DNA from: a virus
Strand: one strand, 5' to 3'
Virus record (IMG/VR): IMGVR_UViG_3300049216_000067
Length of the DNA stretch: 64,000 bases
The translations under genes were made by a program, and so were the position numbers. Shown one piece after another: positions 2,059 to 34,497 of this stretch. Each line of letters opens with the position of its first letter. The stretch's first letter is position 1. Under the pieces are notes generated by a model. It was given only the letters and a program-made list of their open reading frames with translations. It searched no databases and was not told the DNA's origin.

Positions 2059-2649
2059 TTAGTTCAACTTGTAAGCTGGATTTTTCCAGACCCTCGATGA
2101 CTTAGGAATCTTCGAAAGCAAATATTCCATCTGATCGTACAACACTTTATGGTTGTCCAAAAGAAGCTTTTCCTGCAAGTTAGGTGCATACGGAACATAC
2201 AACAATTGCATACCTGCTTGTTCCGGTGTCCTGTCTGCTTTACCGTGATTACATGACTTGCAAGCAGAAACAGTGTTCACCCAAGTGTGACGACCACCAT
2301 GAGACTTAGGAATCACATGGTCAATAGTCAACTGATTGTACTTGAATTGAATTCCACAATATGCGCAGATGTAAGCATCACGAGCATAAAGAATATCACG
2401 CTCAGCATAAATCGTTTCTCGTGTGTAGAAATCTCGTCCAAACACAGGACCGTCAACCATAATGATTGAAGAGACTTCAATCTTTGATCGTTCACCCTTA
2501 GAATTCATGCCACCATAGAAAGTGTGAACAGGAGAACCAAGATTACAGATGACCTTACCCAAAGCGTAGTAACGCGCAGACTCTTCTTCGAGTCCGGTCC
2601 ATTCGCGTGGGTTTCCTGATTTGTCAACAACGAGAACTTCTTTCGACAT
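2059..2649 (-). CDS. HNH endonuclease
   Basis: RD.YICAYCG, TIDHVIPKSHGG, NTVSACKSCNHGK. Confidence 0.9.
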   Translation of the reverse strand: MSKEVLVVDKSGNPREWTGLEEESARYYALGKVICNLGSPVHTFYGGMNSKGERSKIEVSSIIMVDGPVFGRDFYTRETIYAERDILYARDAYICAYCGIQFKYNQLTIDHVIPKSHGGRHTWVNTVSACKSCNHGKADRTPEQAGMQLLYVPYAPNLQEKLLLDNHKVLYDQMEYLLSKIPKSSRVWKNPAYKLN

Positions 2650-6283: not shown

Positions 6284-6367
6284 TGGTGGCTCTGATGGGA
6301 TTTGAACCGCATAGCCTTCTGGTTTGATGCTATCTAACCTGACGCTCTACTATTGAGCTACAGAACC
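6284..6367 (-). ncRNA. tRNA-like RNA with enlarged anticodon loop
   Basis: Acceptor GGUUCUG/CAGAGCC, ACCA; GGUU-AGAUAGCAUCA-AACC arm. Confidence 0.6.
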
Positions 6368-6987: not shown

Positions 6988-7083
6988 TGGTAGTCCCACC
7001 AGGACTCGAACCTGGATCATGCGGTAATCTGCCGCCAAAGCCACTTTATAAGGGTGGTGTTTTAACCATTAAACTATAGGACC
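6988..7083 (-). tRNA. tRNA-Ile(UAU) with long variable arm
   Basis: Loop CU-UAU-AA; variable arm GCGG-CAGAUUA-CCGC; CCA. Confidence 0.82.
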
Positions 7084-7827: not shown

Positions 7828-7901
7828 TGGTGGACCGTGAGAGAATCGAACTCTCAATAGTGACTTGCAAGGCCACTGTTATCCCATTTAACTAACAGCC
7901 C
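7828..7901 (-). tRNA. tRNA-Ala(UGC)
   Basis: G3-U70, CCA. Confidence 0.92.
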
Positions 7902-7907
7902 AAATTT

Positions 7908-7983
7908 TGGTGGGTCCGCAGGGATTTGAACCCTGATCGTGCTCCTTAAGAGGGAGATATAATAGCCGTTATACGACAGACCC
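7908..7983 (-). tRNA. tRNA-Lys(CUU)
   Basis: Cloverleaf, CCA. Confidence 0.9.
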
Positions 7984-8048
7984 GAATAAGACCATAACAA
8001 TCCGCGCCAGGGTGAAGCGTTTCTAATGTTATGGATAAAACCCTGCAA

Positions 8049-8119
8049 GATCCTTGACAGGAATTGAACCTGCTTCTCCCGATTCAAATTCGGGCGACTT
8101 ACCGTTTGTCTTCGAGGAC
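8049..8119 (-). tRNA. tRNA-Gln(UUG)-like, no encoded CCA, possibly degenerate
   Basis: CCCGA-AUUUGAA-UCGGG, good T arm, one acceptor mismatch. Confidence 0.6.
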
Positions 8120-8250
8120 AGATCTTTTTTACGTGTTAGTCTCACGATCCGGACTCGGACATTAGGATTCAATAATGGAACTGTTGGCACATACGATGAC
8201 GAGTCGATGTTTAGGTTGTCAGCCTTAGTCAACAGTTCCGCGTTAATTTT

Positions 8251-8322
8251 CTCCAGCACAAGGAATCGAACCTTGCCACAAATCGTTAACAGCGATCCCG
8301 CACACCTTGCGCGTCTACTGGA
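8251..8322 (-). tRNA. tRNA-Asn(GUU), no encoded CCA
   Basis: U1-A72, G73, loop CU-GUU-AA. Confidence 0.85.
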
Positions 8323-8340
8323 ATAAATCGAAAATAAAGT

Positions 8341-8467
8341 GCGGGTGTCCTGGGCCACTAGACGAAGGCTCGCCGGTCGCGTGCGTGAGCACTTGAATCT
8401 CGGTACGTTTTCGAGAGCCGGTATAGATGAACCTGTTGGATTCGAACCAACGTTCCCCGCGTTAGAG
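8341..8467 (-). ncRNA. Circularly permuted tRNA-like element (3' half precedes 5' half; CUA anticodon loop)
   Basis: 8467-8427 = anticodon loop, GCGGG, T arm, AGGUUCA; 8372-8341 = CGAGCCU, D arm, CCCGC; both cross-stems pair. Confidence 0.75.
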
Positions 8468-8643
8468 TTTCCCTGCTTTACATCGTGTTTCCCTAATAGG
8501 TACTTAACAATGCTGGACACGTTTTAGTCCAACCTGATTTAGGTGGTGAGGGCGACCAAGGTCATTCAATGGAATCCAAAGAATGCTTGAGAAATTGATG
8601 CTGGCTTCACGAGTTTCCTCGACGGATTTCCAGCTTCCAAAGT

Positions 8644-8675
8644 AAAAAGGCCACGCTTTGGCAAGCGATGGCCTT
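8644..8675 (-). terminator. Intrinsic terminator-like hairpin upstream of tRNA array
   Basis: AGGCCAUCGCUU-GCCA-AAGCGUGGCCU then U run. Confidence 0.6.
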
Positions 8676-8832
8676 GTAATCTTGTTCCAGCGGTTCCATG
8701 GGAAGGAGTGACCGCGTGCCTAGCGTGCAAGAACGTTGCACGAGTTGCGTAGTGGAAGCGGGGATACAGCTGAACCTCTTCGGTTCGAAGGCTTATCTGC
8801 CTGAGATACTTCTACTACCTCTAATGCTTACT

Positions 8833-8874
8833 ATCTTAGATTATTTAATCTTTAATAGCAAGTCTCATATTTAT
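8833..8874 (-). promoter_or_regulatory. Tandem promoters for RNA region (ATAAATA late-like; TTGCT-ATTAA-N13-TAAGAT)
   Basis: Motif matches in AT-rich intergenic DNA. Confidence 0.55.
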
Positions 8875-8916
8875 CTTCTAATTTCGAAAAGACTAACTAT
8901 TAAGAAAATTTATTTT

Positions 8917-9099
8917 CTAATAGTCATCCTCTTCATCAAAATCGTGATCCCCTAGAACGTCGTTCATTGTAAACCGTTGACGACGATATGGTTCTTTTGG
9001 AACACGGACCTCATTACTACGAGTCTTGGTCTTTTTGCTGCCACGATTTTGTCGTGACGGCTTAGTGAAATCATCTTTGTCTTCGTCTCTAAAAGCCAT
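8917..9099 (-). CDS. Hypothetical protein
   Basis: ORF, co-oriented. Confidence 0.55.
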   Translation of the reverse strand: MAFRDEDKDDFTKPSRQNRGSKKTKTRSNEVRVPKEPYRRQRFTMNDVLGDHDFDEEDDY

Positions 9100-9100
9100 A

Positions 9101-33465: not shown

Positions 33466-33689
33466 TTCTTTTTGCGCTCTTCAACAAGACGAAGAACTTC
33501 AAGTTGTTCATCTTTTTCCATTTGATCCCATTTAGCAATTTCATCCAGTTTACGAAAACAACCACCACAATAACCTGTCACACTGCTAACACCGCATCGG
33601 TTAGTGCAAGGACTTACTGGCTCTGGTACTGGATCATCCCAAACACTTTTCAATTTAACAACTTCTATCGAATGGTCTAACTTTAACAT
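33462..33689 (-). CDS. DUF1289-like Fe-S/Zn protein
   Basis: SPC..C...C.GC.R..DEI..W. Confidence 0.7.
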   Translation of the reverse strand: MLKLDHSIEVVKLKSVWDDPVPEPVSPCTNRCGVSSVTGYCGGCFRKLDEIAKWDQMEKDEQLEVLRLVEERKKK

Positions 33690-34497
33690 TAGATTCGTCA
33701 AACATTTGTTTTGAAATTGCAAATTCTCTTTCAAATCTAGGATTGATTTTTGTGTCATACACAATCTCTTTAACCCCAGTTTGTATCAATAAACAAGCAC
33801 AACTGGTACAAGGAAACAGTGTCGTGTAAACTACATCCAAATCCCTAACACCGTTCGCAAAAGCTATCGCGTTAGCCTCAGCATGAATTACAAAATTATA
33901 CTTATCGGGTCTTTCCCATCTTTCAGGAATGGTGTCGTCCACCATAAAAGGCATACCATTGTATCCTGTAGACACTATTCTCTTATTTTTAACCAAAATA
34001 GCACCAACTTTTGTTGAAGGATCTTTTGAGCGAGTGGAAGCCAAAAGAGCTAAATCCATAAAATATTGATCCCAAGAAGGAATTTTATCACTATGTTTTT
34101 GTAAATAAACTTTAGCATTAATTAGTGTTGACACGTTTTCTTTCAACATACCTATAGCAGTATTACAATGACCACATAATAATGCTCGAACCTTTCCAGT
34201 CTCGTGATCGTGATCTACGCACAGTTTTCTAACTGCATCAGATCCACGCATCTTTCTAAATTCAGGTTTTTTACAAATAGCACACACCCCACCCTGATTC
34301 AGAAACATTTCATTGTATTCTGCATCAGTTAATTTAGTATGAAACTCATTACTTCTTTTGTTACAATTCTTACATCTCCATATACCATCTTTAGATTTTA
34401 CAGGATGTTTAGTTTCAAACTCATCACCGCAAGATCCACATGTAAGAATTTGTATTTTTCTTTTTGAATGGTTATTTCCACTCCAACCATTAACCAT
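33655..34497 (-). CDS. Endonuclease VII-like domain fused to dCMP deaminase
   Basis: QGGVCAIC, VDHDHETGKVRALLC..CN; then WDQYF, SKDPSTKVGA, HAE, PCxxC. Confidence 0.85.
   Translation of the reverse strand: MVNGWSGNNHSKRKIQILTCGSCGDEFETKHPVKSKDGIWRCKNCNKRSNEFHTKLTDAEYNEMFLNQGGVCAICKKPEFRKMRGSDAVRKLCVDHDHETGKVRALLCGHCNTAIGMLKENVSTLINAKVYLQKHSDKIPSWDQYFMDLALLASTRSKDPSTKVGAILVKNKRIVSTGYNGMPFMVDDTIPERWERPDKYNFVIHAEANAIAFANGVRDLDVVYTTLFPCTSCACLLIQTGVKEIVYDTKINPRFEREFAISKQMFDESNVKVRPFDRSC

Follow-up and report, generated by a model that had tools for sequence, protein, structure and literature searches.

The tRNA array and its surroundings

The stretch of DNA analyzed here, referred to as the window, is 64 kb long, occurs in sequencing runs of moss and peat metagenomes, and carries a T4-like phage gene set that comprises the Gp23 capsid protein, a scaffold, a prohead protease, a family-B DNA polymerase, UvsX and UvsW, together with a clamp, a clamp loader, a gp46/47-like nuclease, an RNR and a thymidylate synthase. 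As the first-pass annotation had correctly stated, gp43 ends in TAG; in the window, TAG is the stop codon of 5 of the 72 minus-strand ORFs. At 33655-34497 (minus strand), a single ORF joins an endonuclease VII domain to a dCMP deaminase domain, an unusual fusion.

Approximately 36 tRNA genes, identified with ARAGORN and Rfam, form an array on the minus strand between positions 301 and 8323. Directly 5′ of the first array gene, tRNA-Asn, and 3′ of a conserved leader lies the segment considered here (8467-8341, minus strand, 127 nt), which is hereafter called the permuted element. The CCA end is encoded in 34 of the 36 listed array tRNAs; it is not encoded in the permuted element, in tRNA-Asn or in the tRNA at 8049-8119. 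The latter gene (minus strand) is recognized as a tRNA by Rfam with 50.7 bits and is missed by ARAGORN, and its loop AUUUGAA would give the anticodon UUG; in a second strain, represented by a contig from run X7, it is heavily changed with several insertions, and the spacer at 8169-8251 is replaced by 71 other letters. Two further members of the array, both on the minus strand, are over-long, with additional nucleotides within or close to the anticodon or variable region: an 81-nt tRNA-like gene at 6287-6367, called by Rfam and missed by ARAGORN, and a 96-nt tRNA-Ile(UAU) at 6988-7083. In the region 250-750, searched with Rfam at E up to 1, the sole match is the tRNA at 301-372, with none at 394-609.

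The array also contains protein-coding genes. A stand-alone RF-1/GGQ-domain protein of 132 aa (PF00472, E 9.5e-14), encoded at 1132-1530 on the minus strand, looks from its sequence like an ArfB- or peptidyl-tRNA-hydrolase-like rescue factor, and an HNH homing-endonuclease gene is found at 2059-2649 (minus strand), whose product could drive rearrangements of the array.

The leader upstream of the permuted element shows zero changes between the two strains compared below and is also present in the closest complete relative, and no promoter was found between the terminator-like hairpin at its upstream end and the element. Within the leader, positions 8576-8639 (minus strand) bear a weak, sub-threshold likeness to the DUF3085 RNA motif (17.1 bits, E 1.6), with GCUGG/CCAGC placed around a CGAG-GAAA-CUCG hairpin and the same letters in both strains. 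Upstream of the terminator, a metatranscriptome contig of 182 nt, recovered in the same form from runs X12 and X13, spans exactly 8669-8849 (minus strand), which is the only part of this region that the contigs of these two runs cover. The segment is conserved with the relative, has no credible ORF and is accompanied by a sigma-70-like site at 8868-8840; it may represent an abundant small RNA or the leader of the tRNA array.

Anatomy of the permuted element

The permuted element presents tRNA positions 32-73, then a 54-nt two-hairpin linker, and then positions 1-31 (Table 1). The segments that the first-pass annotation had listed are all present on the minus strand where it had placed them. 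The linker hairpins are UCUCG-AAAACGUAC-CGAGA and GUGC-UCAC-GCAC, both inside CCGG/CCGG. All 33 pairs of the proposed structure are standard, and the acceptor stem comprises six pairs and a C1/A72 mismatch.

Table 1. Segments of the permuted element and adjoining features, in order of transcription
Feature	Position	Strand	Remarks
Conserved leader	8468..8667	minus	from terminator-like hairpin (8667-8654) to permuted element
CUCUAAC, anticodon-loop positions 32-38	8461..8467	minus	single-stranded 5′ end; U33, CUA at 34-36, A37
GCGGG, anticodon-stem 3′ strand	8460-8456	minus	
GAAC, variable loop	8455-8452	minus	4 nt
T arm, GUUGG-UUCGAAU-CCAAC	8435..8451	minus	Rfam tRNA model positions 44-63, 13.8 bits; unchanged in X7
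AGGUUCA, acceptor 3′ strand, with discriminator U73	8427..8434	minus	CCA not encoded
Linker capping the acceptor stem	8373..8426	minus	54 nt; two hairpins inside CCGG/CCGG
CGAGCCU, acceptor 5′ strand, with U8 and C9	8364..8372	minus	
Glu-type D arm, GUCU-AGUGGCCCA-GGAC	8363-8347	minus	
A26	8346	minus	
CCCGC, anticodon-stem 5′ strand	8345-8341	minus	3′ end of element
AU-rich trailer, ACUUUAUUUUCGAUUUA	8324..8340	minus	17 nt; spacer motifs as after other array tRNAs
tRNA-Asn(GUU)	8250..8323	minus	next array gene after the element; CCA not encoded

The break falls exactly between positions 31 and 32, and the missing halves leave no trace. Neither flank completes a tRNA, so that the element consists of two orphan halves, the 3′ one first and its matching 5′ one after it. 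The sequence after C31 was considered as a leftover anticodon loop and ruled out, because it matches the usual spacer motifs of the array; a function of the plus strand was likewise ruled out, because the G-U pairs become C-A mismatches there.

tRNA type and predicted fold

As written, the permuted element is called neither by ARAGORN nor by the Rfam tRNA model (RF00005), in which the T arm alone scores and reaches less than half of the gathering score of 29. Once the two halves are put back into tRNA order, ARAGORN recognizes a 73-nt cloverleaf with the anticodon CUA, which together with the standard pairing bears out the earlier description of a permuted Glu/Gln-type cloverleaf broken at 31/32. 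Glutamate-type traits are seen in the D arm, in the variable loop of 4 nt and in the residues U13, G22 and A46, and the nucleotides involved in tertiary contacts are all present (U8, A14, G15/C48, G18-G19 and the T loop UUCGAAU). Bacterial tRNA-Glu(CUC) genes come closest among the matches listed, and it is mainly position 36 that sets their loop, CUCUCAA, apart, while the phage's own tRNA-Glu genes are far less similar; A72 and U73 are shared with the two tRNA-Gln genes of the phage.

In both strains, the energy of the cloverleaf differs from the minimum free energy by no more than 1.0-2.3 kcal/mol, and pair probabilities are 0.91-0.99 in both linker hairpins. The fold energy of the element is no better than that of shuffled sequence (z = -0.44), a score that was set aside because tRNAs often behave in this way.

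Comparison between strains

A contig from an independent sample (run X5) is identical to the window across 7900-8525, and a contig from another study (run X7, 2017) carries a diverged copy of the permuted element that is ~93% identical. Misassembly, which had been raised as a way in which the element might prove spurious, is rejected by the unchanged copy in the one and the diverged copy in the other.

Within the 127 nt, X7 differs from the window by eight substitutions and one 2-nt insertion, and 0 of the 33 pairs are broken. In the first linker hairpin, both sides of one pair are altered (C8413 to U and G8401 to A, turning C-G into U-A), and A8411 to G lies in the loop of the same hairpin. 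The insertion is located in the D loop before G18-G19, position 1 changes from C to A where it was already mismatched with A72, and position 74 changes from C to U. A26 becomes G and G44 becomes A, so that the tertiary pair 26/44 between the two halves turns from A/G in the window to G/A in X7. The sole change in the anticodon loop is C38 to A. The CUA triplet, whose conservation the first-pass annotation had proposed to check, is thus kept in the one diverged copy, and a single change among seven loop nucleotides is uninformative on this point.

The pattern of changes was evaluated with 200,000 simulations of eight substitutions and one insertion. The probability of no broken pair was ~0.03, and that of no broken pair with at least one two-sided change was ~0.004, statistics that concern two sequence variants and nine changes in all. 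The test is fair because the 33-pair structure was written down ahead of the X7 data. The long-range stems (acceptor and anticodon) are simply unhit in X7, for which the probability alone is ~0.18. Between the strains, the element diverges by ~7% compared with ~1% in 8468-9100, and immediately downstream (7989-8251) one tRNA and the spacers have been replaced or strongly altered. The element therefore belongs to a mosaic block and is, within it, relatively well preserved. From these sequence comparisons, the permuted element looks selectively maintained.

Distribution in relatives and other genomes

The closest complete relative is an IMG/VR contig (G001, also L003) that is 98% complete and whose RNR is 82% identical. 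It has the same leader, and its array starts with tRNA-Asn, with neither the permuted element nor a counterpart of it. The element is consequently dispensable for the lineage, and represents either a lineage-specific gain or a loss in the relative. The leader motif was found in this relative only, and for a neighboring protein of 166 aa only one near-identical cluster was retrieved.

No other copy of the permuted element was found in INPHARED or IMG/VR. The INPHARED phages gave only partial matches, to ordinary tRNAs, and the IMG/VR pattern scans returned one ordinary tandem tRNA-Glu pair and nothing else; neither an intact tRNA carrying the anticodon arm of the element nor a Glu-type D arm with CUCUAA after it was present in IMG/VR. 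Ordinary tRNA pairs were among the matches listed in the metagenome scan. Exact copies of either half are absent from 185,579 species genomes, and an intact parent copy was found neither there nor in the window, the relative or IMG/VR. A strict structural scan of 1.39 Mb (the window and 166 loci) recovered the layout almost only at tandem, complete and identical tRNA-Glu genes, in addition to three weak matches (L039, L047 and L060).

Junction signals and processing enzymes

In permuted tRNA genes of algae and archaea, the leader and trailer form a bulge-helix-bulge (BHB) motif. No such motif is present at the junction of the permuted element: the best leader-trailer duplex has -6.5 kcal/mol against -6.4 +/- 1.8 kcal/mol for shuffled sequences, and the trailer is unpaired in a 197-nt fold. 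A cmscan search of 8200-8700 revealed no ribozyme or other Rfam family in the flanks. The first-pass annotation had proposed a search for RNA ligase and Ro genes, and none coding for an RNA ligase, RtcB or Ro60 was found among the ORFs scanned in the 64-kb window; PDB sequence searches with three unannotated window proteins identified no ligase, and a 463-aa window protein looks HAD- or glycosyl-related and not Ro60-like. The relative G001 has neither TROVE nor RtcB; its search for Rnl1 gave no match, but the control also matched nowhere. No nuclease is known to make the exact 5′ end at C32. A splicing endonuclease is not known in bacteria (10.1101/312249).

Interpretation of the permuted element

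One explanation is that the element is a non-functional remnant, either a single period of tandem identical Glu-type tRNA genes that survived deletions or a one-unit circle that was re-inserted, so that the 3′ part of a first copy, a spacer and the 5′ part of a second copy would now be drifting together. Tandem identical tRNA-Glu genes with spacers of 41-52 nt (and 104 nt) are common in bacteria and gave the same signal in the structural scan, and the length of the linker is close to that spacer range. The nearest complete relative has no such element, the element diverges more than its flanks, it has no encoded CCA compared with most of the listed array tRNAs, and it comes with no promoter and no junction signal, all of which is consistent with decay. 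These observations have to be set against the changes in X7, which spare every pair and include a compensatory pair within what would be mere spacer as well as the 26/44 swap, against boundaries that are exact with all tertiary nucleotides intact, and against the lack of an intact parent copy in the collections searched. On balance, we regard a remnant as rather unlikely; if the element is only that, it shows a route from tandem tRNA genes to permuted tRNA genes and YrlA-like RNAs.

The first-pass annotation had suggested a permuted amber suppressor activated by ligation and RNase P, or a new Y-RNA-like mimic. For the former, RNase P and 3′ processing would excise the linker, cuts would be made at 32 and 31, and a phage Rnl1-like ligase or host RtcB would close the loop to yield a Glu/Gln-type tRNA(CUA). 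The permuted cloverleaf with CUA stands, and C32-U33-CUA-A37 is found in both strains, with C38 to A giving the commonest 32/38 combination; moreover, A72 and U73 match the phage tRNA-Gln genes, the break is exact, the trailer resembles the spacers where other array tRNAs receive their 3′ ends, and a circularly permuted tRNA can be sealed by RtcB in vitro (PMC10159003). The ligation step, however, lacks support, since a decoding suppressor needs exact cuts before C32 and after C31 as well as a ligase, and no such structure (BHB or flank helix), ribozyme or enzyme gene was found in the flanks or the window, nor would the known bacterial enzymes provide the splicing cut; the loop, which is open in the gene, is itself uninformative on selection for the triplet. 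A true permuted suppressor is therefore improbable, and a split-order suppressor that is active only after linker removal and ligase sealing, with readthrough dependent on RNA repair, is very improbable; if true, it would be the first case of a permuted tRNA gene with a decoding function among bacteria and their phages. The second suggestion fits the topology best, although not as membership of the YrlA family. A Ro60-dependent YrlA-type Y RNA would have the same order of parts (T arm, closed acceptor stem, D arm), and Y RNAs have been described in phages (PMC4201824), but the YrlA covariance model gave no match on 8200-8700 at E up to 10 (cmscan), the Ro60-binding motif GNCGAA(N0-1)G is absent from the minus strand at 8250-8700, no terminal helix extends past the 5-bp anticodon stem, and no TROVE gene was found in the scanned window ORFs or in the 98%-complete relative. 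This possibility is largely refuted and extremely unlikely.

We favor, with a probability of about 0.45, the explanation that the permuted element is a functional, non-decoding tRNA mimic with a "nicked tRNA" topology, possibly in two pieces after opening by RNase P. The anatomy of the sequence, its presence in two diverged strains and the structure-preserving changes are directly established, and because the second strain keeps the element with fold-preserving mutations, it is probably a working tRNA look-alike. The modeled topology is that of a tRNA nicked at the anticodon loop, which is also that of the YrlA tRNA-like domain minus its Ro60-binding handle. The element would probably be transcribed together with the minus-strand tRNA array, and its RNA is predicted to fold into an L-shaped tRNA body in which the two-hairpin linker caps the acceptor stem, the anticodon stem forms the open end, and the seven "loop" nucleotides dangle as a 5′ tail. 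As in the YrlA of M. smegmatis, RNase P may cut at the acceptor end, after which 3′ trimming and the addition of CCA would leave a two-piece molecule. This cleavage may be disfavored by the mismatch at 1/72 and by pairing of leader with trailer beside the acceptor stem (PMC9433436), for which G-1/U73 and G-2/C74 are candidate pairs. Such a mimic would act through proteins that recognize the shape of tRNA or damage to it, including processing enzymes, anticodon nucleases and repair or sensor proteins.

Comparison with known permuted and split RNAs

The literature searched reports permuted tRNA genes exclusively from one archaeon, a small number of algae and viruses of those algae, with no bacteriophage example; the only permuted tRNA look-alikes it describes in bacteria are the Ro60-bound Y RNAs. 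The permuted element stands first in the tRNA operon of a T4-like phage in at least two strains and consists of a permuted tRNA body that is independent of Ro.

YrlA RNAs resemble circularly permuted tRNAs with a closed acceptor stem and possibly derive from dimeric tRNA precursors (PMC4201824; 10.1101/312249); in M. smegmatis, the YrlA acceptor stem measures 7 bp, RNase P cleaves the RNA, and CCA is added to it (PMC4201824; 10.1101/312249). Like YrlA (RF02553), the permuted element is a single transcript with the T arm, then a capped acceptor stem, then the D arm. Unlike YrlA, it has no Ro-binding terminal helix beyond the anticodon stem, which it keeps in full along with all seven loop nucleotides, and its linker is a 54-nt two-hairpin unit whereas that of YrlA is a small loop.

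Permuted tRNA genes are described in Cyanidioschyzon merolae, in some green algae and their viruses, and in Thermofilum pendens, where a BHB formed by leader and trailer is cut by the splicing endonuclease and a ligase seals the circle (Soma et al. 2007; Maruyama et al. 2010; Chan et al. 2011, as cited in 10.1101/312249). The permuted element shares with these genes the placement of the 3′ half upstream of the 5′ half on one strand, the short intervening sequence at the acceptor end, and the canonical tRNA obtained when the halves are joined. It differs in that its flanks pair at chance level and its bacterial host has no known enzyme of this kind, and its break at 31/32 is the stem-loop boundary, unlike that of the algal and archaeal type.

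The pieces of a two-piece tmRNA remain paired after processing. As in two-piece tmRNA genes, the T arm and the acceptor 3′ strand come before an excised intervening segment, which is followed by the acceptor 5′ strand. In contrast, the permuted element has no tag reading frame or pseudoknots, its D and anticodon stems are complete, and its acceptor (C1/A72, G2-C71, A3-U70) departs from the alanine-type acceptor of two-piece tmRNA; ARAGORN found no tmRNA in the window.

A further comparison is provided by an engineered circularly permuted tRNA that imitates a nicked tRNA; the repair regulator RtcR binds to it, and RtcB is able to seal it in vitro (PMC10159003). As in this RNA, the acceptor end of the permuted element is closed, and the molecule starts and ends in the anticodon region, in imitation of a tRNA after anticodon-nuclease cleavage. 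The engineered molecule is a synthetic RNA that carries a tetraloop and has ribozyme-made 5′-OH and 2′,3′-cyclic phosphate ends, whereas the permuted element is natural. If real, the element would add to the set of phage tRNA-like RNAs and would be a natural case of the nicked-tRNA shape that is sensed by bacterial RNA repair, raising the question of whether, where tRNA cleavage is contested, phages deploy mimics of damaged tRNA or tRNAs that depend on ligation.
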